Shown here one piece after another: positions 2,363 through 56,839 of a stretch of 64,000 bases of DNA. The notes under the pieces are model-generated. The model saw only the letters and a program-made list of their open reading frames with translations. It was not told where the DNA came from and did not search any database. The stretch lies in the sequence record PZ338877.1; one strand, written 5' to 3'. The DNA is from a phage. The stretch's first letter is position 1. Each line of letters starts with the position of its first letter. The translations under genes and the position numbers were made by a program.

Positions 2363-2569
2363 TTAAATCTTTTTAGAAAACTTCGAAAAGAGTTCTCTTA
2401 GTTTTTCAGTGATGCCTAACTGTATCTCTAATATTTCAAAGATAACCCATAGTAACATGGCTCCGAACAACGAACCTTGTTCAAAATCAGTAAATAGGTT
2501 AACAACAAGCATACCAATTACAATAGCTGGTGCATCAACAACCAAACCTTCCCAAAGGCGTTTAAGCAT
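2363..2569 (-). CDS. small hydrophobic (membrane) protein
   Basis: 68 aa ORF between nrdD and redoxin; hydrophobic core VVDAPAIVIGMLVVNLF and LFGAMLLWVIFEIL. Confidence 0.4.
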   Translation of the reverse strand: MLKRLWEGLVVDAPAIVIGMLVVNLFTDFEQGSLFGAMLLWVIFEILEIQLGITEKLRELFSKFSKKI

Positions 2570-2804
2570 TGTTCACCTCTGCCATGAAATTCTGTAGCGT
2601 TCCAACAGGTTTTAGGTTTTGACCGTCAGTTTTCATGATGAATGGCATCTGACGAACTGGCATCTGTGCAATATCCATCAGGTCTGACAGTTCATAATCC
2701 TGCCCTAACATTCTCACAACATGGTCAATACCACGAGCTTTCGCAAAATTCTTTGCAGTCTCACACTGAGGGCATCCAGTTTTGGAGTAAATTACATAAG
2801 TCAT
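2562..2804 (-). CDS. nrdH: glutaredoxin-like redoxin (NrdH-type) for RNR
   Basis: 80 aa, CPQC redox motif near N-terminus, located immediately upstream of nrdB/nrdA. Confidence 0.7.
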   Translation of the reverse strand: MTYVIYSKTGCPQCETAKNFAKARGIDHVVRMLGQDYELSDLMDIAQMPVRQMPFIMKTDGQNLKPVGTLQNFMAEVNNA

Positions 2805-3877
2805 TAAGGAACCTCTAAAAATCCACTATTCAAATCATCTACAACAGTATTCAATAAATACGCACCGTTCTGTTGCTCCTGATTAGCATTCTGCTCTTTA
2901 TCAATTTCCATCTTCTTAATCATATACTTCAAAGGTGGTTCTTTAGGAGCTACAAAATCTCTGGGAATGCCAAACATATCATACAGTGGGGCAGCATTAT
3001 AGTAAACCCACTCATGAAGAAGCTTTGTATTTAACCCAACTACAGCACGTCCTTCAGAGAAGATATAATACGACCATTTTTCTTCACTTTCAACTACTTC
3101 ATCTAAGATTACTTTAATCTCTGGAAGAATTTGTTGGAAAGCTTTTTGCCACTCATCATCTCTTAAAGTTTCTTTTAAAACTTCAATATCAATTTTAGTG
3201 TGAAGGATTTCATCAAGCATAATTTTCTGGACAGCTTGAGCAATACCTTGAAATTTATCTTGAGCATCAAGTGCAAAAGTACATGCAAAGGATGCCATAA
3301 AAGAAATGCCTTCAAGTGCAGTCACTGCAAATAGACCTTTTAGAATCACTTTATGGAAGTGTAAAGGGTCTTTGTCCAGAAGCGAGTCACGGACATAACT
3401 CAGACGATAGTTTATGCCTTCATCTAGTAATTCTTCAAGAACACGATTCACAGTTTTTAATCGGTCTTGTACAGCAATGTTCTGGTTAATCTCATCTAAG
3501 ATTGTTTCAGGATTTTTAATACATTGCCTTACAATCTCTGAGTAAGTAAGAGCATGTAGGTTTTCAATCTCAGACTGCTTCATAATTGCAGTTGCATAAA
3601 TATCATCAGAGATGAATGGTGCAAAGGCAAATGCTAAGCTCTTAGCAACTTGGGTGTCTGCTTCCCACTGCCACTTAAGAATCTCAAGCATTACACCTGA
3701 CATTGATGCTGGCACACTCTCAAAATCAAGACGTGATTGCTCAAAAGGGAACTCATCTTCTGACCAATCTTGTGCTTTTTGTTGTTTATAGAGTTCAAAG
3801 ATTTTTGGGTAGTGCTTATTAAGTGAGTCAAATGTTTTTCTCTCACCACCTAAAAAGATTGGGTGTTGGTTAATCAT
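2804..3877 (-). CDS. nrdB: ribonucleotide reductase class Ia beta subunit
   Basis: ferritin-like di-iron protein of NrdB length adjacent to nrdA; start moved to internal ATG (MINQHP) with AAGGAG RBS to remove overlap. Confidence 0.82.
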   Translation of the reverse strand: MINQHPIFLGGERKTFDSLNKHYPKIFELYKQQKAQDWSEDEFPFEQSRLDFESVPASMSGVMLEILKWQWEADTQVAKSLAFAFAPFISDDIYATAIMKQSEIENLHALTYSEIVRQCIKNPETILDEINQNIAVQDRLKTVNRVLEELLDEGINYRLSYVRDSLLDKDPLHFHKVILKGLFAVTALEGISFMASFACTFALDAQDKFQGIAQAVQKIMLDEILHTKIDIEVLKETLRDDEWQKAFQQILPEIKVILDEVVESEEKWSYYIFSEGRAVVGLNTKLLHEWVYYNAAPLYDMFGIPRDFVAPKEPPLKYMIKKMEIDKEQNANQEQQNGAYLLNTVVDDLNSGFLEVP

Positions 3878-4131
3878 AGTGTGATTTCTCCTTTCTTTAT
3901 CATCTCTAAGGCTTGTTTTCTGTCTAAAACTTCCCAATTTTCTTTGTTAAACATGTCATAAGGTCTTGCATAGATTTTACCATCTGCTGTAGAGATGTAA
4001 GAGACACCAGCGACCCATGAGTCATCATTTTGTTTTATCATCATATCTGTGCTACTCACATAGTACAGCGTTTTCCGAGGTTTATGGAGCAAATATATGG
4101 GCCACTCATGATTTGCTATTAAATCTTTCAT
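3874..4131 (-). CDS. hypothetical protein
   Basis: ORF between nrdA and nrdB; start set at MKDLIANHEW with GGAG RBS, ATGA overlap with nrdB start. Confidence 0.45.
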   Translation of the reverse strand: MKDLIANHEWPIYLLHKPRKTLYYVSSTDMMIKQNDDSWVAGVSYISTADGKIYARPYDMFNKENWEVLDRKQALEMIKKGEITL

Positions 4132-4186
4132 AGTTTCTCCAAAGTTAATTTTAGAGGGTCTTTTACGACCCTCGTAGTTATTAAAA

Positions 4187-6421
4187 CTAAACACCACAAC
4201 CCTCGCAATAAGCATCTTGCAGTGCAGATTTACCTACACCAATGCGACTGTTAAGGTAGTACATGGTTTTCATACCTACTGAGTTGGCATAAATCATGTA
4301 CTTCAAAGCTTGAGCCAATGATACCTTCTTAGACTTTGCATAGTCAACATAGAAATCTGAAGAGATAGCTTGACCAGTGAACTTTTGAAAAATTGCATAA
4401 CAATCAATCAGGTCAAAGGTGTCAATATCCCAAGCAATTTCATAGACATACTTCAACTCTTCGTAATCTGGAACAATAAACAGTACGTTACCAGTTGCAG
4501 ACTTTTTAGTTAAAATAAAGTCACGAATTGGGTACAAGCCATTTGTCGTATTAGTTGCCAGTGAAGAACTCTCATTAGGCATGTAAGCTTCTAATACAGA
4601 GTTACGGATTCCACCATTTTCTTTAATACGTTGTGCTAAGTCATCCCAATCATAACGAAGTTTTGCATCATGCTTCTCATCAATCTTCCTGTTAGCTGTC
4701 TTTGGAGGAACCCAACCTTCAGGATATTTAGTGAACTGCATATACTCAGGCACACCACGTTCTTTAGCAAGTCTTAAAGAAGCTTCGTGTAAGTAGTAAG
4801 AGTGCATTTCAGCAAGCTCATGAAGCTTCGTCTTACCTGCTCTTGAAGAGTAGTTCACGTAGTTTTTCGCAAGGTAATGAGCCACATTTGTAAGGCCAAT
4901 CCCAACAGAACGACGCTTCTGGACATGGTTACGCATCGACGGATACGGATAATCCATAAGGTCAATAACGGAGTCAACCATTGCAAGAGCATAATAAGCA
5001 ACGTCAGCGTATTCATCTTCTGAAATTCTCCCTGCAACCAAACTAGCTAGGAAGCAAAGAGCTACCTCACCATCCTCTTTCACAGCGTCATCTCTGTAAA
5101 GGTCTGTCTCTTTCTCAAAGCCGTACACTGGCAACACAATTTCCATACAAAGATTTGACATCTTCAAAGGCTCTTTAAATGGTGTATGTGTGTTTGCATT
5201 ATTTGTGAAGAATGGATACACACGGCCTGTTGCATAACGCTGCTGGATAAACAGTTTAGCAATTTCACGAGCCTTTACTCGTCTGTGCTTAACACCTGAA
5301 TGCACTGCATGACCAACTGCCATAGCAAACTCATCAGCAGATGCTGTGTAGAACATGTCATAGAGCTTTGGTGCATCCTTGTAAGAGAATAGTAACCAGT
5401 CTGTATCATATTGAACACACTGCCAGAAATAATCATTTGTACCAAATGAGTAGTCCATCTCGTTAATACGTTTAGAAGGAACCGTTGTAGGATGCTTCAA
5501 ACGCAGTAAATCTTCAATCTGCGGGTCTAGAGCAGTGTAGAAGTTGTTAGCTGAACCACCACGACTCTTCTGTTTGTTTGCCTCTACAGATGAGCGTACA
5601 AGCTTGTAATAAGGCAGTTTACCCATGTGCTCAATAGTATTTTGACGGATACCATCACCAATAGTACGAGTCTCCATCAGCATCCCAATGCCAGCTTGCT
5701 TTGTAGTCATATCATAAGCAACCTTTGCAGCAATGCCTAGAGATTCAGCGGTATCATTTGCCTTAATCAAACAGCACGACGCATAACCTGATTTAGTAGC
5801 TCTTAAACCATTCAGATAAGGCGTAGGAGCGTTAATCTTCAGGTCAGATAGGTAAGTGTACAGCTTAATCACATCTTGCAGCCTACGGTGCTTTGGTTGC
5901 TTCTCAAAGGCTTTCATAGCCATACCCATAAACATAAATTGTGGTGACTCAAAAAGTCTTCCTGTTTTAATATCACGGATACCATACTTGTCTCTGAACT
6001 GTTTCAGGACTGCATAACCGTAAGAGATGTCTTTTGAGTGCACAATGTACCCTTGCAGATATTCAAGCTCTTCCTGAGAATAGTCCATCTTCTCCCAAAG
6101 TCCTGCTCTCTCCATATTTTTAACAAAGGTAACCAGCGTAGGAACCTTAGTAAAGCCTCCAAAGGCTTCTTTGTAGATAATCCCCAGAAGTAGCCGTCCA
6201 GCCATGTCTGAGTACTCTTGAGTTTGTTTATCAACACAAACATCAATCATGGCTTGGTGCATCTCTTTTGTAGTGCAACCCTCGTAGACACGTTTCATGG
6301 CTTCCATAGTGACTTCTGACCAGATAATTCCACGCTTATCTGCCCATGATGCCCACTTATTCAGTCTTTCTGGGTCAAAGTTTACTACTGTACCGTTTGA
6401 TTTTTTAATTGTCTTAATCAT
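4187..6421 (-). CDS. nrdA: ribonucleotide reductase class Ia alpha subunit
   Basis: 744 aa; C-terminal CEGCGV redox cysteine pair; typical RNR large-subunit size and context with nrdB. Confidence 0.88.
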   Translation of the reverse strand: MIKTIKKSNGTVVNFDPERLNKWASWADKRGIIWSEVTMEAMKRVYEGCTTKEMHQAMIDVCVDKQTQEYSDMAGRLLLGIIYKEAFGGFTKVPTLVTFVKNMERAGLWEKMDYSQEELEYLQGYIVHSKDISYGYAVLKQFRDKYGIRDIKTGRLFESPQFMFMGMAMKAFEKQPKHRRLQDVIKLYTYLSDLKINAPTPYLNGLRATKSGYASCCLIKANDTAESLGIAAKVAYDMTTKQAGIGMLMETRTIGDGIRQNTIEHMGKLPYYKLVRSSVEANKQKSRGGSANNFYTALDPQIEDLLRLKHPTTVPSKRINEMDYSFGTNDYFWQCVQYDTDWLLFSYKDAPKLYDMFYTASADEFAMAVGHAVHSGVKHRRVKAREIAKLFIQQRYATGRVYPFFTNNANTHTPFKEPLKMSNLCMEIVLPVYGFEKETDLYRDDAVKEDGEVALCFLASLVAGRISEDEYADVAYYALAMVDSVIDLMDYPYPSMRNHVQKRRSVGIGLTNVAHYLAKNYVNYSSRAGKTKLHELAEMHSYYLHEASLRLAKERGVPEYMQFTKYPEGWVPPKTANRKIDEKHDAKLRYDWDDLAQRIKENGGIRNSVLEAYMPNESSSLATNTTNGLYPIRDFILTKKSATGNVLFIVPDYEELKYVYEIAWDIDTFDLIDCYAIFQKFTGQAISSDFYVDYAKSKKVSLAQALKYMIYANSVGMKTMYYLNSRIGVGKSALQDAYCEGCGV

Positions 6422-50061: not shown

Positions 50062-50137
50062 TGGAGAATCCGAAGGGACTCGAACCCTTATAAACCTGTT
50101 TTGCAGACAGGCACATATCCATTTCTGTCACGGATTC
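50062..50137 (-). tRNA. tRNA-Cys (anticodon GCA)
   Basis: minus-strand cloverleaf: T-arm AAGGG-ACTCGAA-CCCTT, anticodon arm CCTGT-TTTGCAG-ACAGG, acceptor CGGATTC, CCA encoded. Confidence 0.8.
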
Positions 50138-50141
50138 AAAT

Positions 50142-50234
50142 TGGAGGAAGATACCAGACTTGAACTGGTACACCGATTTCTCAGCTACTGGCAGTTTAGC
50201 AAACTGCTCCCTTACCTTTTAGGGTTAATCTTCC
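50142..50234 (-). tRNA. tRNA-Ser (anticodon GCU), class II
   Basis: T-arm ACCAG-ACTTGAA-CTGGT, anticodon arm GCAGT-TTAGCAA-ACTGC, 21-nt variable arm, 7-bp acceptor, CCA encoded. Confidence 0.75.
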
Positions 50235-50235
50235 A

Positions 50236-51033
50236 TTATTTCTGTAATGCGTTCTTCATTTCTGGTGTTGCAATAGTGTCAATCACACCAGTTTTACAAG
50301 CATCATCAAACCAGTCTGGTAAGATACCTGCTAAGAACCCATTGATATTCGTTTTAAGGTACTCTGCAATAAGGGCAGCTTCTTCTTCAATCATCTGCAC
50401 AACTTCATCTGCATAAGCTGTAATCTTCGAGATACCTTCATTAATCTTACTAACAGCTTGATTAGCTAAATCAGAAATAGTATCAAGACCTTTATCAATA
50501 GCATCCTGTAAGTCGCTTAATACACCATTAACGCCATCTAGTGTGCTGTTAATTGTATCCATAGCTTTTTGACCATACTCTGTAGCAACACCCATAATAC
50601 CACTAAATGGTGTACAACCAACTTGCTCTCCTGCTGCACCCATAACATTGGAGTAGCCTTTTGCTACCTGCATACGTGAGGAAAACTCATCAATAGATTT
50701 TTGACCATAATCTGTCAATGTTTTAGTAGTTGCTGTAGTGCTTGTCAGACTCGTTGTAAAGCTATTAAGCAGAACTGTTGTAAGTCCAGCAGCAATGAGC
50801 TTATCCTTCATTGTAGGGTCTGTTACAGAGCTAATAGAGCTTACAAGTGATGTAGAGGCAGCTACGGTTCCACCTAGAACTGCTGCACCAGTAATAAGGG
50901 GATTAGAAAACCCTCTACCGGTTTTTAAGAGATTAAAAATCTCCTTACCTTGTTCTGTCATCTCTTTCATTAAGCACCTTTGAAATTGGTAGTCCAGTGG
51001 GATTTGAACCCTCTTCTCATGTTTTTCAGACAC
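50236..51033 (-). CDS. hypothetical Ser/Thr/Ala-rich protein embedded in tRNA array
   Basis: 265 aa ORF between tRNA-Ser and tRNA-Phe. Confidence 0.45.
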   Translation of the reverse strand: MSEKHEKRVQIPLDYQFQRCLMKEMTEQGKEIFNLLKTGRGFSNPLITGAAVLGGTVAASTSLVSSISSVTDPTMKDKLIAAGLTTVLLNSFTTSLTSTTATTKTLTDYGQKSIDEFSSRMQVAKGYSNVMGAAGEQVGCTPFSGIMGVATEYGQKAMDTINSTLDGVNGVLSDLQDAIDKGLDTISDLANQAVSKINEGISKITAYADEVVQMIEEEAALIAEYLKTNINGFLAGILPDWFDDACKTGVIDTIATPEMKNALQK

Positions 51034-51063
51034 GCGCTTTAACCATATAAGCTACTTGGACTA
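50987..51063 (-). tRNA. tRNA-Phe (anticodon GAA)
   Basis: T-arm GTGGG-ATTTGAA-CCCTC, anticodon arm CATGT-TTTTCAG-ACACG; ends approximate. Confidence 0.65.
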
Positions 51064-51068
51064 TAAAT

Positions 51069-51144
51069 TGGGGTGACCTACGGGATTTGAACCCGTATAG
51101 ACCATGTTCACAGCATGGGTCATTACCATTTATGATAAGGCCAC
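51069..51144 (-). tRNA. tRNA-His (anticodon GUG)
   Basis: T-arm ACGGG-ATTTGAA-CCCGT, anticodon arm CCATG-TTCACAG-CATGG, D-stem TCAT/ATGA, CCA encoded. Confidence 0.8.
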
Positions 51145-51175
51145 ATTTAAGGACTCTCGTAAGAATCCTTAGAAG

Positions 51176-51251
51176 TGGCAGCGGCATAAGGATTTGAACC
51201 TTAATAAGACAGCTTCAGAGACTGCTGCATTGCCAGTTATGCTATACCGCT
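51176..51251 (-). tRNA. tRNA-Gln (anticodon CUG)
   Basis: T-arm TAAGG-ATTTGAA-CCTTA, anticodon loop TTCAGAG (rc CTCTGAA), D-stem GCAT/ATGC, CCA encoded. Confidence 0.75.
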
Positions 51252-51256
51252 AAATT

Positions 51257-51335
51257 TGGTACTCCATATCGGATTCGAACCGATACATAACACAGATTTT
51301 AAGTCTGGCCTCTCTGCCAATTGGAGTAATGGAGC
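51257..51335 (-). tRNA. tRNA with Leu-type anticodon UAA, short variable region
   Basis: T-arm ATCGG-ATTCGAA-CCGAT, anticodon loop TTTTAAG (rc CTTAAAA), 7-bp acceptor; only 79 nt. Confidence 0.6.
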
Positions 51336-51337
51336 AT

Positions 51338-51413
51338 TGGCGGGGGATGTTGGAATTGAACCAACTTCTTCGATTTCAAAGACCGAGGTTTTAACCTTGT
51401 AAACTAATCCCCT
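51338..51413 (-). tRNA. tRNA-Gln (anticodon UUG)
   Basis: T-arm GTTGG-AATTGAA-CCAAC, anticodon arm TCGAT-TTCAAAG-ACCGA, D-stem GTTT/AAAC, CCA encoded. Confidence 0.75.
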
Positions 51414-51421
51414 TTAAATCT

Positions 51422-51979
51422 TTACTTTCTTAGTGGATGAATAAAGAATGCCAACATAACTCTTTCCCTTGAGAATGCTCTTTCTTCTGGGACAACACTT
51501 TTAAGTTTCCATCCAACATAAATTCTCCAGTAGAATTGTTTACCAAAGACTTTAATTGATGGGATAAAGGCGAATAATCCCCAAGCATTACTGTTCCACA
51601 TTAGGAGATAACCTGTCTGATTATCTTCAGGGTCAGAACTTACGTTGATATTACCTTTCCACTTAGTAACATCTTTTACATCTCTTCCTAACACATGGTA
51701 AGAGAAGTTATAAGCTTTGTTTCTCCAGAGCCATCCAACTCTCTGCAAATAGACACCCAGCTTACCAATCTTTCTAATCTTAGCCCATCTTTTAATGTGA
51801 CCTTCATCACCATCAATTGGGTTGTCATATGTCTCCATCCATCTGAATCCGAAAGGTAGATGTCCTTTCTTCTCACTATAGAATGGAACTACAAAAGGTG
51901 CTAAGATAACTGCTAAGGTTGCTGCCAATGGGTCTAACAAAGCTAGGAAAATCCATGAAGCATACTTCAAATATCTCAT
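51422..51979 (-). CDS. membrane protein embedded in tRNA array
   Basis: 185 aa; N-terminal hydrophobic helices (ASWIFLALLDPLAATLAVILAPFVVPF). Confidence 0.45.
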   Translation of the reverse strand: MRYLKYASWIFLALLDPLAATLAVILAPFVVPFYSEKKGHLPFGFRWMETYDNPIDGDEGHIKRWAKIRKIGKLGVYLQRVGWLWRNKAYNFSYHVLGRDVKDVTKWKGNINVSSDPEDNQTGYLLMWNSNAWGLFAFIPSIKVFGKQFYWRIYVGWKLKSVVPEERAFSRERVMLAFFIHPLRK

Positions 51980-51998
51980 CTAAATAGCCTCTTTAAAT

Positions 51999-52074
51999 TG
52001 GTGCAGGATAAGGGATTCGAACCCCTATTAACAGCTTCGTAGACTGCTGCTCTATCCATTTGAACTAATCCTGC
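51999..52074 (-). tRNA. tRNA-Arg (anticodon ACG)
   Basis: T-arm AAGGG-ATTCGAA-CCCCT, anticodon loop TTCGTAG (rc CTACGAA), acceptor GCAGGAT/ATCCTGC, CCA encoded. Confidence 0.8.
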
Positions 52075-52188
52075 TTACCTACAAGAACACCATACAGTTT
52101 TTCACAATCTTTGTTTTTACGTCTGTTTAGGTATGACGCTCTAAACTTTTTTGCTATTGACTTATCACTCATAGTGCTCTCCCAAAAT

Positions 52189-52266
52189 TGGTGTTCCAAG
52201 ACGGATTCGAACCGTCACTAGTACAAGGTTTGAGCTTGCATCCTCTGCCAATTGGGATATTGGAAC
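52189..52266 (-). tRNA. tRNA with Leu-type anticodon CAA, class I-like (78 nt)
   Basis: T-arm GACGG-ATTCGAA-CCGTC, anticodon arm ACAAG-GTTTGAG-CTTGC, perfect acceptor GTTCCAA/TTGGAAC, A73, CCA encoded. Confidence 0.65.
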
Positions 52267-52267
52267 A

Positions 52268-52342
52268 TGGTGCTCACTAAAGGACTTGAACCTTTTTCTT
52301 CATCTTGTAAGGGTGATGTTTTACCATATAAACTAAGCGAGT
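52268..52342 (-). tRNA. tRNA-Val (anticodon UAC)
   Basis: T-arm AAAGG-ACTTGAA-CCTTT, anticodon loop TTGTAAG (rc CTTACAA), D-stem GTTT/AAAC. Confidence 0.7.
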
Positions 52343-52437
52343 ATGAAAGAGGTCTGAAGTTGTGCCGCTCACTCAACTCCGTGGAATTTGTTACGGTCTT
52401 CAGTTGACACCAGCGGTCTTTCACTTGACCTCTGAAT
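52343..52437 (-). ncRNA. structured non-tRNA element inside tRNA array (candidate small RNA)
   Basis: 95 nt between tRNA-Val and tRNA-Thr; closing 7-bp helix AGAGGUC/GACCUCU plus internal inverted repeats; lacks T-loop consensus; contains a GGTCTTCAG motif copy. Confidence 0.3.
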
Positions 52438-52513
52438 TGGTGCTCCCACAAGGATTCGAACCCTGATAAGTTGCTTACAAGGCAACCGTAATAGCCAATT
52501 ATACGATAGGAGC
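52438..52513 (-). tRNA. tRNA-Thr (anticodon UGU)
   Basis: T-arm CAAGG-ATTCGAA-CCCTG, perfect anticodon stem GTTGC/GCAAC with loop TTACAAG. Confidence 0.8.
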
Positions 52514-52520
52514 ATTAATT

Positions 52521-52595
52521 TGGAGCATCCAGAGGGAATCGAACCCTCAACCTCAGTTTGGAAGACTGTAATTTTCCCGTTTAAACTATGGATGC
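52521..52595 (-). tRNA. tRNA-Gly (anticodon UCC)
   Basis: T-arm GAGGG-AATCGAA-CCCTC, anticodon loop TTGGAAG, perfect acceptor GCATCCA/TGGATGC. Confidence 0.8.
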
Positions 52596-52601
52596 ACTAA
52601 T

Positions 52602-52677
52602 TGGTGGAGTCACTGAGAATTGAACTCAGTTCCCAAGTTTGCAAAACTCGAATTTTAACCATATAAACTATGACCCC
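52602..52677 (-). tRNA. tRNA-Ala (anticodon UGC)
   Basis: T-arm CTGAG-AATTGAA-CTCAG, anticodon arm CAAGT-TTGCAAA-ACTCG. Confidence 0.7.
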
Positions 52678-52683
52678 AATGTT

Positions 52684-52759
52684 TGGTACAGGTGGAGGGA
52701 ATTGAACCCATCGTCTTACTGATTAAGAGTCAGCCGCATAACCATTTTGCTACACCTGC
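52684..52759 (-). tRNA. tRNA-Lys (anticodon CUU)
   Basis: anticodon stem CTGA/TCAG with loop TTAAGAG; acceptor ACAGGTG/CACCTGC; paralogous to tRNA at 53998-54073. Confidence 0.7.
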
Positions 52760-52766
52760 ATTGATT

Positions 52767-52844
52767 TGGTAGGAGACAAGGGATTCGAACCCTCAAACAC
52801 CAACTTCTAAGGATGGTAGGTTTACCAATTACCGTCAATCTCCC
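52767..52844 (-). tRNA. tRNA with Leu-type anticodon UAG, class I-like (78 nt)
   Basis: T-arm AAGGG-ATTCGAA-CCCTC, anticodon arm CCAAC-TTCTAAG-GATGG, A73, CCA encoded. Confidence 0.6.
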
Positions 52845-53097
52845 ATTAAATCTTTTTAGAGAACTTCTAAGAACCTAAGCAACAAGGTTCCACAACAAGC
52901 TGTAATAACCTTAGAAGCCCTCTAAAAAGACCTAAATATGTCTTTGCATAGTCTTGTTTAATCCGGTGACTAGAACCTTTGGAGAGCTTGATATTATCTC
53001 TTCTCCGTGACACCTACTAGGTGCTTTATCAGTGTGTACGACAATACACGAGGGATAAACCGAAAATGCGAGCAAGCATGACGGTGTAAATCTTATT

Positions 53098-53188
53098 AGG
53101 CGGTAAGTAAAGGAGTCGAACCCTCACCGTATCTCTACAGTGGCAACAGTTTTCAAGACTGTTTGGCTGCCATTAGCCGCTACCTACC
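53098..53188 (-). tRNA. tRNA-Ser (anticodon UGA), class II
   Basis: T-arm AAAGG-AGTCGAA-CCCTC, perfect anticodon stem ACAGT/ACTGT with loop TTTCAAG, long variable arm. Confidence 0.7.
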
Positions 53189-53201
53189 CCTAATAAGACT
53201 T

Positions 53202-53284
53202 TGGCATGGGACGGAGGAGTTGAACCCCTTTGAAACGGTTTTGGAGGCCGTTGCTCATGCCTTAGAGTCTTAACATCGTCCCAC
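53202..53284 (-). tRNA. atypical tRNA-Trp-like gene (anticodon core CCA, 9-nt anticodon loop)
   Basis: T-arm GGAGG-AGTTGAA-CCCCT, acceptor ATGGGAC/GTCCCAC, CCA encoded; anticodon stem AACGG/CCGTT encloses 9 nt (tRNA sense CCUCCAAAA); D region about 8 nt longer than canonical. Confidence 0.5.
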
Positions 53285-53426
53285 ACTATAATTCGAAGCT
53301 TACCGTATTTTCGCAACACTGTAAAGCCCCTTCTCAGATTATTTACATGTTCTGGAAAACATGAGATACAGACCACCTCCTTACACGGAGACCCGATAAG
53401 GTCGTCTAAGCAATCTGCTAACTATT

Positions 53427-53503
53427 TGGCACACCCTACAGGATTCGAACCTGTAACTAACGATTTAGAAGACCGTTGCTCTATCCAATTGAACTAAGGG
53501 TGC
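53427..53503 (-). tRNA. tRNA-Arg (anticodon UCU)
   Basis: T-arm ACAGG-ATTCGAA-CCTGT, anticodon arm ACGAT-TTAGAAG-ACCGT, D-stem GCTC/GAAC. Confidence 0.8.
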
Positions 53504-53839
53504 ATTAATCTTTAAAGACTCTCTTAGAAAGCCCTTAAAGATGCCCACCTTATTAATCATACCGTGGGCGAGTACGCCAAATTCTTTGATGAGGGATTGG
53601 AAGACCTCACTGGTGTTTAGCCTATCAAGCTACTGCCAGAAAAACATTGTCGTTTGCATTTATTTTAAATTTGCAAAATAGACGCTACGCAACGAAAACT
53701 ATTCAGAATATGTACAACAAATTTCCCCACATTGTGTTACGTCTAACGCTCATGTATTGGTGTTTGAATTATACATATTGTGAAGTATTTTAGTTACTAT
53801 AAAGTGGTCACATCTTAATGTCAACAACTTTATTGAAAT

Positions 53840-53915
53840 TGGTACTGGTAGGTGGAATCGAACCACCGATGTTCCCTTATCAGGGGAGTGTTATAACCTT
53901 CTTAACTATACCAGC
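53840..53915 (-). tRNA. tRNA-Ile (anticodon GAU)
   Basis: T-arm GGTGG-AATCGAA-CCACC, anticodon loop TTATCAG, acceptor ACTGGTA/TACCAGC. Confidence 0.8.
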
Positions 53916-53916
53916 T

Positions 53917-53993
53917 TGGAGGTTCAGATGGGAATCGAACCCACATTCATAGGGCTTATGAGACCCCTGCATTACCTTATCTGCGACTGAACC
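53917..53993 (-). tRNA. tRNA with CAU anticodon (Met/fMet; three G-C pairs in anticodon stem)
   Basis: T-arm ATGGG-AATCGAA-CCCAC, anticodon arm AGGGC-TTATGAG-ACCCC, perfect acceptor GGTTCAG/CTGAACC. Confidence 0.75.
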
Positions 53994-53997
53994 ATAT

Positions 53998-54073
53998 TGG
54001 TAGAAGTGGAGGGATTCGAACCCATCGCCTGTCAGATTAAAAGTCTGCCGCATCACCATTCTGCTACACTTCC
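53998..54073 (-). tRNA. tRNA-Lys (anticodon UUU)
   Basis: anticodon stem CAGA/TCTG with loop TTAAAAG; acceptor AGAAGTG/CACTTCC. Confidence 0.7.
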
Positions 54074-54275
54074 ATTAAATTACCTTTGCAGTAACCTACG
54101 CAGACCTTGCTAAAGGGTCTGTAGAGTCATTTCCTCTTAAGCTAATCTAGAATCATGCTAAGGAAATTCATCGGCACTCATGGGACGACATAATTAGCCA
54201 CATAAGCTACTGCAAAGATAATTACCAGACCGTTGTTTATCATCTTAAGTGCTACCATTACACCAACTCGACATC

Positions 54276-54321
54276 TGCCGAGTGAAGGAATCGAACCTTC
54301 GCCTTTTCTTTACCGGAGAAA
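54276..54321 (-). pseudogene. tRNA-like fragment (3' half only)
   Basis: intact T-arm GAAGG-AATCGAA-CCTTC and 3' acceptor strand plus a 5-7-5 hairpin, but no complementary 5' acceptor strand; anticodon loop has C at position 33. Confidence 0.35.
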
Positions 54322-54336
54322 TAGATTGTTTAAGTT

Positions 54337-54360
54337 TTGCTGTAAACGGTCTTCTGTAAA
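54337..54360. repeat. short repeat family copy (TTGCTGTAAACGGTCTTCTGTAAA)
   Basis: one of 4-5 copies of TTGCTG(Y)A(W)(W)(Y)GGTCTTCTG within tRNA array. Confidence 0.7.
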
Positions 54361-54423
54361 TTTGTTGAGCCAGACCAAGTTTTAAATTTTTCAAAATTAA
54401 ATTGGCTTGAAATTTTAAGTAAC

Positions 54424-54444
54424 TTGCTGTATTTGGTCTTCTGC
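54424..54444. repeat. short repeat family copy (TTGCTGTATTTGGTCTTCTGC)
   Basis: same motif family. Confidence 0.7.
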
Positions 54445-54530
54445 TCCTTTAAAGAATACTCGTAAGAACTCTTTAAGGGAGGGGCTAAATAGCCCTCTCA
54501 AAACATCATCTTGAAATACTTATTATAATT

Positions 54531-54608
54531 TGGCGGTTACGAAGGGATTTGAACCCTCATCATCTCCCGTGACAGGGGAGTATTTTAACCAGATTAAACT
54601 ACATAACC
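54531..54608 (-). tRNA. tRNA-Asp (anticodon GUC)
   Basis: T-arm AAGGG-ATTTGAA-CCCTC, perfect anticodon stem CTCCC/GGGAG with loop GTGACAG. Confidence 0.8.
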
Positions 54609-54614
54609 TTTATT

Positions 54615-54702
54615 TGGTGTGCCGTGTAGGAGTCGAACCTACCGAGTCTCAATGACAAGGGATTTACAGTCCCCACCGCTACCATCTACGGGATAACGAC
54701 AC
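54615..54702 (-). tRNA. tRNA-Tyr (anticodon GUA), class II
   Basis: T-arm GTAGG-AGTCGAA-CCTAC, anticodon arm AGGGA-TTTACAG-TCCCC, 15-nt variable arm. Confidence 0.75.
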
Positions 54703-54773
54703 ATTTTATTATTCTATTCAGGCTAAGGACTTGCACCTTACAAATCGGTGAGCAATCGCTTCTCTCCTAAATT

Positions 54774-54850
54774 TGGCGGTTAGTCAGGGATTCGAACCCT
54801 GTGCCATTCGCTTAACAGGCGACCGCACATACCTTATGTGCTTCCTAACC
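54774..54850 (-). tRNA. tRNA-Asn (anticodon GUU)
   Basis: T-arm CAGGG-ATTCGAA-CCCTG, anticodon loop TTAACAG, D-stem GCAC/GTGC. Confidence 0.7.
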
Positions 54851-54902
54851 TTAATACATTGCCAGACCGTGTTTTTTTCTTTTATCCGCAAAAAGTAGTT
54901 TG

Positions 54903-54927
54903 TTGCTGCATACGGTCTTCTGCAAAA
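54903..54927. repeat. short repeat family copy (TTGCTGCATACGGTCTTCTGCAAA)
   Basis: same motif family, immediately 3' of tRNA at 54929. Confidence 0.7.
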
Positions 54928-54928
54928 T

Positions 54929-55005
54929 TGGAGGCGGGTGCAGGAGTCGAACCTGCCGATACCATGCTAATGAGACATGTGAGACGCCCTTTCTCTATAC
55001 CCGCA
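54929..55005 (-). tRNA. tRNA with CAU anticodon (second copy; Met or Ile2-type)
   Basis: T-arm GCAGG-AGTCGAA-CCTGC, anticodon arm CATGC-TAATGAG-ACATG; 1:72 unpaired; U at position 37. Confidence 0.6.
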
Positions 55006-55069
55006 ATTCTTAATGACCAGACCAAATCTCTTCTTTGTCCGATTTACCTTCAGATGAATAAGATTAAGT

Positions 55070-55094
55070 TTGCTGTAATTGGTCTTCTGTCAAA
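55070..55094. repeat. short repeat family copy (TTGCTGTAATTGGTCTTCTGTCAAA)
   Basis: same motif family, immediately 3' of tRNA-Glu. Confidence 0.7.
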
Positions 55095-55096
55095 AC

Positions 55097-55174
55097 TGGC
55101 GTTCCAGAAGGGATTTGAACCCTCAAATATCCACTTTGAAAGAGTGGTGACTTTACCATTTTGTCTACTGGAAC
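55097..55174 (-). tRNA. tRNA-Glu (anticodon UUC)
   Basis: T-arm AAGGG-ATTTGAA-CCCTC, perfect anticodon stem CCACT/AGTGG with loop TTGAAAG, perfect acceptor. Confidence 0.8.
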
Positions 55175-55181
55175 ATTAATT

Positions 55182-55258
55182 TGGTCTCTGTTGGAGGACT
55201 TGAACCTCCGGCCTTACCGCCCCAAACGGAACGCTCTACCAAGCTGAGCTAAACAGAG
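55182..55258 (-). tRNA. tRNA-Pro (anticodon UGG)
   Basis: T-arm GGAGG-ACTTGAA-CCTCC, anticodon loop CCCCAAA, D-stem GCTC/GAGC, perfect acceptor. Confidence 0.8.
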
Positions 55259-55423: not shown

Positions 55424-56839
55424 TTACCAGATGTAACGGTCAATCATTACTGCTTTGAGCATTACGCTGATTGGGTCAAACTTCTCACCGCCAAGAAGAG
55501 CTTTTAAAGTGGCTGGAGAGAACCCTGATACCATTGCTACACCATTATCCTTAACAGATACTTCGCAAGTACCATTACGGTTTGCTAAGTACCAGAATAC
55601 TAGTTGCGGCATTTCGTATCCAGCTTTTTTGTACTTACTCTGAATTGCTTCAAAGTTTGTACGACCATTTGCACCATCAACCTGATTAAACTCCATATCA
55701 GAGAAGATAATGAGCTTACTTGGCATATCTTTCTGAGTCAAGTTGTTTCTCTTACCTACCTCAAGGATACGGTCAAAAGCTGCTTGTAAGTTAGTTGAGC
55801 CATATTCAACATGACGCATTACCTGACGGTGACGGTTTCGTAAATCACCACTCAGTTCAATGAAATGAGGGTTTGTTGAATAGACCATTAACTCATCTTT
55901 AAAGCAACCTGTATTGCGTTCTGCTACATACAAGGCAAGTGATACACCAATATCAAGGGCAGTAATTGAGCCAAGATTCACCCAAGACATTGAGCTTGAA
56001 ACATCAGTCATACATAAGATGTTTTCACCTTCTGCCATCCAGTTTGGTAGTGCTTTCCACTGCTCATTAGCGACATCAGCATTACCATACTTGATAGATT
56101 TAATCACATCGTATGGGTAAACAGCACCAGCGTTAATCTTGGCCTCACCTTTTGAGAGGGACTCGATGTAAGCTTTGTAACGTTCCCCATCTTTACGGCT
56201 AAAGAGCTTTTGGTAACGTGCAGCAGCGAGTGAAGGAATCTTGCTGTAGTCAATCTTACCAAACTCATTAGCAGAGATTTTTTGCTCAACCGTATCAGAT
56301 AGTGCAGATAACAGTGTGCGATACTCCTTCTCACTTAAGTTTGCAAACTTACAGAAACGTTTTACAAACTGTTTATGGCGTGGTTTTACTCGTGGCAACC
56401 ACTTAGCTGCTAAACCTGCTGTTGCAGGGTCTAGTAATGCTGATTCTAAATGTTTGAAGGCATCTGTCTCAAAACGAGTACCTACGAAGATTTTGAAGTC
56501 ATCAAAACGACCAAGTTCTGCAATCTTATCCATAATGCGAAGAACCTGTGTAGGTTCTAAAACTTTATCTTCAATTGCTTGAAGTAAAACAGTTCGGAAA
56601 GCTTTACGCTCACCCATACCTTCTCGTACATCTCGCATATGCAGTAAAATACGAACTGCAACATCAACATCCTCACGCAAAGCTTTGTAGAACAGGTCTG
56701 GTAAGATTTCTACATTGCTACGGCTTGAGCCAGCGGCTTTGTAAAAATCTACCAGAGCAGACATTGATGAAGTATGGTTTACAGCACCATTTTCAGTTCG
56801 ACCTGCATGAAGGTGCGCATGTTTAAATAACTCGCTCAT
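55424..56839 (-). CDS. vWA-domain protein with N-terminal helical domain (Ro60/TROVE-like or DUF2828-like, putative)
   Basis: 471 aa; C-terminal von Willebrand A fold with MIDAS-like DVSSSMS and later LIIFSDMEFN; N-terminal about 270-aa helical region; first gene upstream of tRNA array. Confidence 0.55.
   Translation of the reverse strand: MSELFKHAHLHAGRTENGAVNHTSSMSALVDFYKAAGSSRSNVEILPDLFYKALREDVDVAVRILLHMRDVREGMGERKAFRTVLLQAIEDKVLEPTQVLRIMDKIAELGRFDDFKIFVGTRFETDAFKHLESALLDPATAGLAAKWLPRVKPRHKQFVKRFCKFANLSEKEYRTLLSALSDTVEQKISANEFGKIDYSKIPSLAAARYQKLFSRKDGERYKAYIESLSKGEAKINAGAVYPYDVIKSIKYGNADVANEQWKALPNWMAEGENILCMTDVSSSMSWVNLGSITALDIGVSLALYVAERNTGCFKDELMVYSTNPHFIELSGDLRNRHRQVMRHVEYGSTNLQAAFDRILEVGKRNNLTQKDMPSKLIIFSDMEFNQVDGANGRTNFEAIQSKYKKAGYEMPQLVFWYLANRNGTCEVSVKDNGVAMVSGFSPATLKALLGGEKFDPISVMLKAVMIDRYIW

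Follow-up and report, generated by a model that had tools for sequence, protein, structure and literature searches.

Leucine tRNAs with short variable loops in a Felix O1-like coliphage and their relatives among phages and bacteria

In textbooks, a long variable arm is a defining feature of bacterial tRNA-Leu. Type I tRNA-Leu, in which a leucine tRNA body carries a variable loop of about 5 nucleotides (nt), is already known from mitochondria and from Streptomyces. In the animal mitochondrial tRNAs the variable loop is short, and A73 and A14 serve as identity elements (PMC9976931), but their D/T architecture is often degenerate and they are served by a dedicated mitochondrial leucyl-tRNA synthetase (LeuRS). 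In Streptomyces coelicolor, a type I tRNA-Leu(CAA), its variable loop 5 nt long, coexists with type II leucine tRNAs and a single LeuRS (PMC6614811), and about 5 nt is the minimum variable loop reported for type I tRNA-Leu activity (Fan 2019, PMC6614811). The tRNA array of phage 5/BF23 likewise contains 77-nt type I leucine tRNAs, tRNAL1 (UAG) and tRNAL2 (UAA) (AJ604531). Finally, engineered minimal or arm-less variants of E. coli tRNA-Leu (Asahara 1993/1998, Larkin 2002) are, as summarised in PMC9976931, charged by E. coli LeuRS, and their charging is described there as requiring A73 and the D/T tertiary interactions. Here, we describe three tRNA genes with the leucine anticodons UAA, CAA and UAG in a 64,000-nt stretch of phage DNA (sequence record PZ338877.1; the window, for the whole stretch), whose source phage is a Felixounavirus, a Felix O1-like coliphage. 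Their variable loops measure 5-7 nt on a leucine tRNA body, which places them in type I. Whereas the arm-less variants are laboratory constructs, these genes are natural and conserved, and they keep exactly the elements required for charging of those constructs; no specific sequence relationship to animal mitochondrial tRNA-Leu was seen. In Felix O1 and hundreds of its relatives, the window genes already bear a tRNA-Leu annotation, and they represent a common but little-noticed kind of leucine tRNA in phages and actinobacteria, not a one-off.

The three genes lie on the minus strand, within an array of 26 tRNA genes (50062-55258, minus strand) delineated by ARAGORN and Rfam: tRNA-Leu(UAA) at 51257-51335 (79 nt), tRNA-Leu(CAA) at 52189-52266 (78 nt) and tRNA-Leu(UAG) at 52767-52844 (78 nt). 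A preliminary description had placed them at these positions, with these anticodons, and had assigned them class I architecture with A73 and an encoded CCA. ARAGORN and Rfam matched its coordinates and anticodons exactly, A73 and CCA are present in 3 of 3 genes, and the class I assignment agrees with the lengths of 79, 78 and 78 nt and with variable regions which, given a canonical 5-bp anticodon stem, are GUUAUGU (7 nt) in Leu(UAA), ACUAGU (6 nt) in Leu(CAA) and UGUUU (5 nt) in Leu(UAG), each ending in U48. All three score above the gathering score of 29 bits that we used as the cloverleaf threshold for the Rfam tRNA model RF00005 (47.5, 47.0 and 40.0 bits for the UAA, CAA and UAG genes, respectively), the last being the lowest score in the array. 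The ARAGORN cloverleaves and a hand fold agree on the following layouts: for Leu(UAA), GCUCCAU UA CUC CAAUUGGCAGA GAG G CCAGA CUUAAAA UCUGU GUUAUGU AUCGG UUCGAAU CCGAU AUGGAGU A CCA; for Leu(CAA), GUUCCAA UA UCC CAAUUGGCAGA GGA U GCAAG CUCAAAC CUUGU ACUAGU GACGG UUCGAAU CCGUC UUGGAAC A CCA; and for Leu(UAG), GGGAGAU UG ACG GUAAUUGGUAAA CCU A CCAUC CUUAGAA GUUGG UGUUU GAGGG UUCGAAU CCCUU GUCUCCU A CCA. Acceptor pair 1-72 is G1.U72 in Leu(UAA) and Leu(UAG) and G1-C72 in Leu(CAA), and the anticodon loop of Leu(UAA) carries A36A37A38, while position 38 of Leu(CAA) is C, as opposed to A38 in E. coli leuX.

The type II form, a variable region of more than 10 nt folded into a stem-loop, is thus absent from these genes. 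A total of 78-79 nt leaves no room for a hidden long arm, and refolding, both by ARAGORN and by hand, revealed none; a concealed arm or intron was excluded by this length and by an ARAGORN run with introns and pseudogenes allowed, which left the result unchanged. The same array contains Ser(GCU) (50142-50234, 93 nt), Ser(UGA) (53099-53188, 90 nt) and Tyr(GUA) (54615-54702, 88 nt), all on the minus strand and all with the long variable arm kept as an extra stem of 4-5 bp. Because the serine and tyrosine tRNAs show their extra stem-loops, the absence of the arm is specific to the leucine tRNAs and is not an artefact of detection.

The D-arm tells a different story from the variable region. A motif shared by the UAA and CAA genes (CTCTGCCAATTGG on the plus strand at 51312-51324 and 52243-52255; CCAAUUGGCAGAG as RNA) had been taken for an unusual D-arm. 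It is indeed common to both genes, but it is the typical D-arm of bacterial tRNA-Leu. Both genes have a 3-bp stem (CUC/GAG and UCC/GGA), an unpaired C13.A22 and an 11-nt loop containing AAUUGGxAGA, as type II D-arms do. E. coli K-12 leuZ, leuX and leuW (87, 85 and 85 nt), which carry the same three anticodons and likewise have A73, U8, U48 and an encoded CCA, show a 3-bp stem and 11-nt loop in the same frame in ARAGORN (GAAUCGGUAGA, AAAUCGGUAGA and AAAUUGGUAGA, respectively), and the loop common to host and phage genes can be written (R)AAU(U/C)GGUAGA. Since their D-arm frame matches that of leuZ, leuX and leuW, the window genes are hybrids in which a class II-type leucine D-arm is joined to a class I-type variable loop. 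The E. coli tRNAs differ in their length of 85-87 nt and their variable stem-loop of 13-15 nt, compared with 78-79 nt and 5-7 unpaired nt in the phage genes, and in position 13, which is C in the phage genes and G or A in leuZ, leuX and leuW.

The determinants read by E. coli LeuRS are A73, A14, the A15-U48 Levitt pair, G18G19 and A20a (Giege & Eriani 2023, PMC9976931), together with the elbow pairs G18:U55, G19-C56 and U54:A58 (PMC9976931); the anticodon and the sequence and fold of the long arm are irrelevant to leucylation, and arm-less variants are still active (PMC9976931). From these features we composed a leucine signature (U8; a 17-nt D-arm with a 3-bp stem and unpaired 13:22; A14A15; G18G19 in register; A20a; U48; A73) and counted it on about 1,100 distinct phage tRNAs. 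The full signature was found in 67 of 82 short and 39 of 56 long leucine tRNAs, in no serine (0/75) or tyrosine tRNA (0/40), and in 3 of 846 other class I tRNAs. Leu(UAA) and Leu(CAA) carry every element of it, as well as the hinge and elbow and the T-loop residues U54, U55, C56 and A58. Leu(UAG) has A73, U8, AAUUGG, U48 and UUCGAAU, but the register of its D-arm is uncertain because that arm contains one extra nucleotide. U48 itself occurs in 81 of the 82 short phage leucine genes. The reference loci had been gathered with a pattern requiring AATTGGYANA, which enriches the motif in some non-leucine tRNAs and so, if anything, works against the signature test. The preliminary description had left two alternatives, non-canonical leucine tRNAs of class I architecture or tRNAs of another identity behind leucine anticodons; the complete E. 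coli leucine signature in the UAA and CAA genes supports the former, and the rarity of that signature among serine, tyrosine and other class I tRNAs argues against the latter. As a separate observation, G1.U72 is enriched in phage leucine tRNAs (35/82 short and 19/56 long, versus 97/839 other class I); pair 1-72 is exclusively G-C or G.U in the type I leucine alignment described below, and leuZ also has G1.U72.

The genes are strongly conserved. Compared with Felixounavirus genomes (CL1, C600M2 and JH2, for example), the array shows 94-97% identity. For Leu(UAA), 264 phage records match, of which 216 reach at least 99% identity; the Felix O1 copy (AF320576), labelled tRNA-Leu in its record, is 100% identical. 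Leu(CAA) is near-identical in VpaE1 and ASO1B, and Leu(UAG) matches 355 phage records. The tRNAscan-SE-based annotation of the ASO1B record calls the three genes Leu-TAG, Leu-CAA and Leu-TAA. Among lineages of Felixounavirus, the anticodon stem of Leu(UAG) has been swapped whole, in compensatory fashion, being ccatc/gttgg in the window, tctcg/cgaga in VpaE1 and ASO1B, and gcttc/gtagc in Pectobacterium phage Wc4. In an alignment of 48 phage type I leucine tRNAs that includes the three window genes, G1, U8, A14, A15, G18, G19, A20a, U33 and A35 are invariant, as are U48, U54, U55, C56, A58, A73 and CCA. Paired cells make up 97.6% of the stem positions aligned, both partners have changed in 19 of 20 pairs, and the covariation score of 1.025 compares with 0.26 for shuffled alignments (0 of 500 reach the observed value) and with at most 0.2 for slid registers. 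A mismatch at the position of the U.U in the Leu(UAG) anticodon stem is seen also in T5-like and Vequintavirinae homologues, and the VpaE1/ASO1B stem is fully Watson-Crick. One record departs from the general pattern: the 'Leu(CAA)' of Salmonella phage FG1m (PP068123, locus positions 4999-5076) is a chimera, with a 5' part from Leu(CAA) and its last 16 nt (ccgatatggagtacca) from Leu(UAA). Two type I leucine genes have apparently recombined there across their shared T arm; the event removed the intervening Arg(ACG), DUF7338 open reading frame (ORF) and Gln(UUG), and the acceptor stem of the chimera is mismatched.

The preliminary description had proposed a search for homologues in related phages; these are near-identical in Felixounavirus, and short-armed leucine tRNAs are widespread in other phages and in Actinomycetota. 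The tRNAL1 of phage 5/BF23, mentioned above, is about 84% identical to the Leu(UAG) of the window, including the mismatched anticodon stem and the T arm, but this phage belongs to the Demerecviridae and its tRNAs differ in their G13/U21 D loop (GAAUUGGCAUA) and GUUUU variable loop. Two leucine tRNAs of 77 nt accompany serine and tyrosine tRNAs with long arms in this Tequintavirus (Salmonella phage 5/BF23), as do three of 74-77 nt in Lactobacillus phage LpeD (Herelleviridae) and two of 77 and 78 nt in Cronobacter phage EspYZU14 (Vequintavirinae). The T5-like Aeromonas phage AhP_Mru1 has three of 77 nt beside serine tRNAs of 85-90 nt, and Xanthomonas phage X1, an unclassified member of the Caudoviricetes with a 200-kb genome, combines one of 77 nt with two of 85-86 nt and keeps the serine and tyrosine arms. 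Wc4 also mixes types, with a 78-nt Leu(UAG) and an 87-nt Leu(UAA), and the Leu(UAG) of T5 itself is normal at 85 nt. If LeuRS alone tolerates arm loss, retention of the arms by the serine and tyrosine tRNAs of these phages is to be expected. At the LpeD locus (NC_048677, locus positions 2460-5827), ARAGORN finds 15 tRNAs, including the three type I leucine tRNAs, where RefSeq annotates none.

The short form was surveyed in two sets of viral contigs. In a pattern scan of IMG/VR, leucine tRNAs of 75-80 nt accounted for 49 of 134 among the matches listed (at least 120 contigs). In a bias-reduced sample of 120 viral contigs chosen by a tRNA-Met pattern, with short defined as a variable region of at most 8 nt, a short variable region was present in 21 of 65 distinct leucine tRNAs, 2 of 57 serine tRNAs and 1 of 28 tyrosine tRNAs. 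A few of the 21 short leucine tRNAs look like miscalls, and a fair estimate is therefore a quarter to a third. No statement that phages, among them coliphages with hosts that possess type II leucine tRNAs only, commonly encode type I tRNA-Leu was found in the full-text literature searched, and Fan et al. 2019 (PMC6614811) do not mention phages.

The first viral pattern had also matched many non-leucine tRNAs, and a register-specific pattern that included the D loop, a leucine anticodon and short spacing was then used to scan GTDB species genomes. Among the matches listed, all but one were leucine tRNAs, of 73-78 nt, and the majority came from Actinomycetota (Nocardia, Rhodococcus, Gordonia, Mycobacterium, Corynebacterium, Arthrobacter, Bifidobacterium and others). 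These actinobacterial genes look like ordinary chromosomal genes, since each is usually the sole tRNA within 8 kb, and they accord with the type I tRNA-Leu(CAA) described for Streptomyces coelicolor (PMC6614811). The bacterial type I leucine tRNAs listed are mostly UAA and CAA, with a GCC-CAAUUGGCAGA-GGC D-arm and variable loops such as CCAGU and ACAGU; a minority of the listed loci are densely packed tRNA arrays that hold as many as 26 tRNAs in 8 kb. The actinobacterial tRNAs share the CAAUUGGCAGA D loop (C13/G21) and variable loops ending in AGU with the UAA and CAA genes of the window, and the UCC-CAAUUGGCAGA-GGA D-arm of the window Leu(CAA) is identical in the Leu(CAA) of Rhodococcus and Bifidobacterium. 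They differ in that they reside on the chromosomes of GC-rich hosts, where the LeuRS reportedly is adapted to type I (PMC6614811), whereas the window genes are phage-borne and must work with an enterobacterial LeuRS; in addition, the Streptomyces tRNA has C48 where the window genes have U48.

Three subfamilies can be distinguished by their D loops. The C13/G21 subfamily (CAAUUGGYAGA, with a variable loop ending in AGU or GUU), to which Leu(UAA) and Leu(CAA) of the window belong, comprises 35 viral and 104 of 120 bacterial tRNAs among the matches listed, and within those matches its D loop never occurs in a type II leucine tRNA. The G13/U21 subfamily (GAAUUGGYAUA, variable loop GUUUU) is that of T5-like phages and has type II relatives, and a third, A13/A21, is the one that the Leu(UAG) of the window resembles. 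Core identity, computed without the anticodon and variable region, relates the window genes to other type I leucine tRNAs at 0.71-0.82 (viral) and 0.66-0.74 (bacterial), to type II leucine tRNAs at 0.59-0.70, and to E. coli leuZ, leuX and leuW at only 0.47-0.58. A BLAST comparison of Leu(CAA) with 5,426 complete E. coli genomes found no match. On these two results we reject an origin as trimmed or recent copies of host genes; the window genes belong instead to lineages of type I that circulate from phage to phage. Loss of the arm, or acquisition of the type I form, has probably happened more than once.

We consider it quite probable that the three genes encode functional leucine tRNAs of hybrid architecture that are charged by the host LeuRS and supply the codons UUA, UUG and CUA. 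This assessment starts from the observed gene structure, conservation, covariation, identity elements, wide distribution and phage codon usage, from which we infer leucylation by the LeuRS of E. coli or Salmonella, base modification and use in translation. The leucine genes would be transcribed together with the array and matured by host RNases, with CCA supplied by the gene. Host LeuRS would then attach leucine by reading A73 and the D/T hinge and elbow (U8-A14, A15-U48, G18G19, A20a), ignoring the anticodon and without a strict need for the long arm; all three tRNAs should be passed over by SerRS and TyrRS, both of which depend on a long arm. The UAA gene would decode UUA and UUG, the CAA gene UUG, and the UAG gene CUA and CUG and possibly CUU. 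Charging by the host enzyme is suggested by the complete identity set, by the published dispensability of the arm, and by an annotation in the record of the T5-like Salmonella phage 5 (AJ604531), in which tRNAL2, the 77-nt type I Leu(UAA), is noted to be an 'effective amber suppressor' when given a CUA anticodon. This implies that an enteric host charges tRNAL2 and uses it without regard to the anticodon.

The codon usage of the phage fits such a role. The window has a G+C content of 39.3%, and leucine in its ORFs is encoded by CUU (27.5%), UUA (26%), CUG (15%), UUG (13%), CUA (12%) and CUC (6%). In E. coli, CUG accounts for about half of leucine codons, UUA for about 13% and CUA for about 4%, and UUR and CUA are read by minor isoacceptors encoded in single copy. 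The three phage tRNAs cover exactly UUR and CUA, codons that the AT-rich phage uses much more than E. coli, and a classical role in codon supply, an ordinary one, is the most likely. An effect on the decoding of UUA, UUG and CUA had been raised as a possibility in the preliminary description; nothing points to it, and ordinary codon supply is the better reading.

Several observations weigh against functional, host-charged leucine tRNAs. Single-sequence minimum-free-energy folding gave a cloverleaf for Leu(CAA) only (1 of 3), and the z-scores were not significant. Failure of such folding to recover the cloverleaf is common for tRNA; the result therefore says little, and ARAGORN, Rfam and covariation were used in its place. 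In Leu(UAG), the D-arm is irregular, measuring 18 nt, 1 nt more than in the other two genes, and its stem is weak; the anticodon stem contains a U.U mismatch; and homologues of this gene are labelled 'tRNA-OTHER' or 'pseudo' in a few GenBank records. The suppressor annotation concerns the G13/U21 and not the C13/G21 subfamily, and it leaves the inserted amino acid unstated. The most direct challenge is biochemical: the type I tRNA-Leu(CAA) of Streptomyces coelicolor was not a substrate for leucylation by E. coli LeuRS, from which Fan et al. 2019 (PMC6614811) concluded that the E. coli enzyme charges type II only, ascribing type I charging to a special leucine-specific domain. The Streptomyces tRNA likely shares the C13/G21 body type with the UAA and CAA genes of the window; its C48, on the other hand, breaks the A15-U48 pair needed by E. 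coli LeuRS. In crystal structures of E. coli LeuRS with tRNA-Leu, the variable arm contacts K809 and R811 of the C-terminal domain (PMC12360207), and efficiency may therefore fall when the arm is missing. Finally, C38 of Leu(CAA) should prevent formation of i6A37 by MiaA and hence of Cm34 by TrmL, given the determinants in PMC9976931. None of these findings renders a different identity likely.

Among other explanations, the one that survives best, though we regard it as improbable, is that the short arm is adaptive and lets these tRNAs evade a factor, a nuclease or otherwise, by which type II tRNAs or the extra arm of tRNA-Leu are recognised. T-even infection is accompanied by cleavage of a host tRNA-Leu isoacceptor. 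The factor could be either an effector of host defence, comparable to human SLFN11, or an attack on host tRNA-Leu induced by the phage; decoding of leucine codons for the AT-rich phage would then continue while host tRNA-Leu was inactivated, an advantage that would add to the translational role. Arm loss does recur across several D-loop subfamilies and many unrelated phage groups, which hints at selection rather than accident. There are also parallels: phage tRNAs offset defences that work by cleaving tRNAs (van den Berg 2023, Azam 2023 and PARIS, as cited in PMC10644984), human SLFN11 prefers type II tRNAs (as cited in PMC13462974), and bacterial Schlafen tRNases act against T5-like phages (PMC13056530). 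In the literature searched, however, we found no bacterial nuclease or Schlafen specific for type II tRNAs or the leucine arm, and the bacterial Schlafens characterised so far cleave either within the anticodon arm (tRNA-Lys, Met, Ala and others) or, for most tRNAs, in the T-loop. An escape from arm recognition also sits poorly with the long-arm serine and tyrosine tRNAs retained in the same phages, with the ordinary chromosomal setting of type I leucine genes in Actinomycetota, and with the mixture of type I and type II leucine tRNAs in Wc4 and Xanthomonas phage X1. The simplest reading of arm loss in phages is relaxed constraint, together with deletion bias, on a tRNA whose synthetase needs no arm.

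It is very unlikely that the genes carry leucine anticodons but accept another amino acid, or an ambiguous set, so that UUA, UUG and CUA are recoded or blurred in infected cells. A class I shape with A73 is common to many class I isoacceptors, and the failure of E. coli LeuRS on the Streptomyces tRNA (PMC6614811) could be read in the same direction, as could the non-leucine nearest neighbours of the UAA and CAA genes in one whole-sequence test. The reference used in that test was biased towards non-leucine AAUUGG D loops and the best scores were low, whereas a fairer comparison puts other type I leucine tRNAs nearest, at 0.71-0.82 identity. The leucine D-arm and hinge signature, complete in the UAA and CAA genes, recurs in just 3 of the 846 other class I tRNAs; synthetases for other A73 tRNAs (Ile, Val, Met, Phe, Lys and others) need anticodon bases that are absent here (PMC9976931); one body plan is common to three different leucine anticodons; and the use of leucine codons by the phage looks ordinary. 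The nearest-neighbour isotype test, run on whole sequences stripped of anticodon and variable region, placed 47 of 82 short leucine tRNAs beside long leucine tRNAs, the UAA and CAA genes of the window not among them, with a leave-one-out accuracy of 70%; because of this accuracy and the enrichment of its reference for non-leucine tRNAs, it was replaced by the signature test and the grouped comparisons.

Decaying relics, or elements with a non-translational role as decoy, processing signal or recombination site, are hardly credible: the 40-bit score and weak D stem of Leu(UAG), the 'pseudo' and 'OTHER' labels on its homologue in some records and the FG1m recombination between two leucine genes would suit such elements, but all three genes score well over the Rfam threshold, are near-invariant in hundreds of genomes, show compensatory stem changes and strong family-wide covariation, and retain the encoded CCA and intact anticodon loops with U33 and A35, and a relative, tRNAL2 of phage 5, works as a suppressor.

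The three genes have implications for LeuRS specificity. Coliphages of the Felix O1 and T5 groups carry conserved type I leucine tRNAs that are useful only if an enterobacterial LeuRS charges them, and these tRNAs bear directly on the claim, made in the single biochemical study of a type I tRNA-Leu from bacteria, that E. coli LeuRS charges type II only. They form a natural and easily tested set of substrates for asking what the long arm is for. They are relevant as well to the engineering of compact or orthogonal leucine tRNAs, to the question of why phages carry their own tRNAs, and to annotation, as some pipelines label such genes 'OTHER' or 'pseudo'.

Some further features of the array deserve mention. 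Three long gaps on its minus strand (54074-54531, 53189-53427 and 53504-53840) contain only weak matches to RNA families in Rfam: a partial tRNA at 54283-54333 (22 bits), a tRNA-Sec-like match at 53208-53282 (23 bits) and a tmRNA-like match at 53504-53693 (15.9 bits). ARAGORN with introns allowed found no tRNA in these long gaps, and the equivalent Asp-Lys gap of the ASO1B record bears a 129-nt 'tRNA-Thr-GGT' annotation. The gaps could be degenerate tRNAs or stable RNAs in the style of T5. Directly upstream of the array lies a 471-aa ORF (55424-56839, minus strand) with the Pfam domains DUF2828 and DUF7788, which is labelled 'RNA-binding protein' in the VpaE1 and FG1m records and matched no solved structure by sequence; its position adjoining the array suggests a possible role in RNA handling. 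Within the array, also on the minus strand, are ORFs at 51422-51979 (DUF7338, 185 aa) and 50236-51033 (DUF7217, 265 aa; both Pfam), whose positions are kept in relatives.

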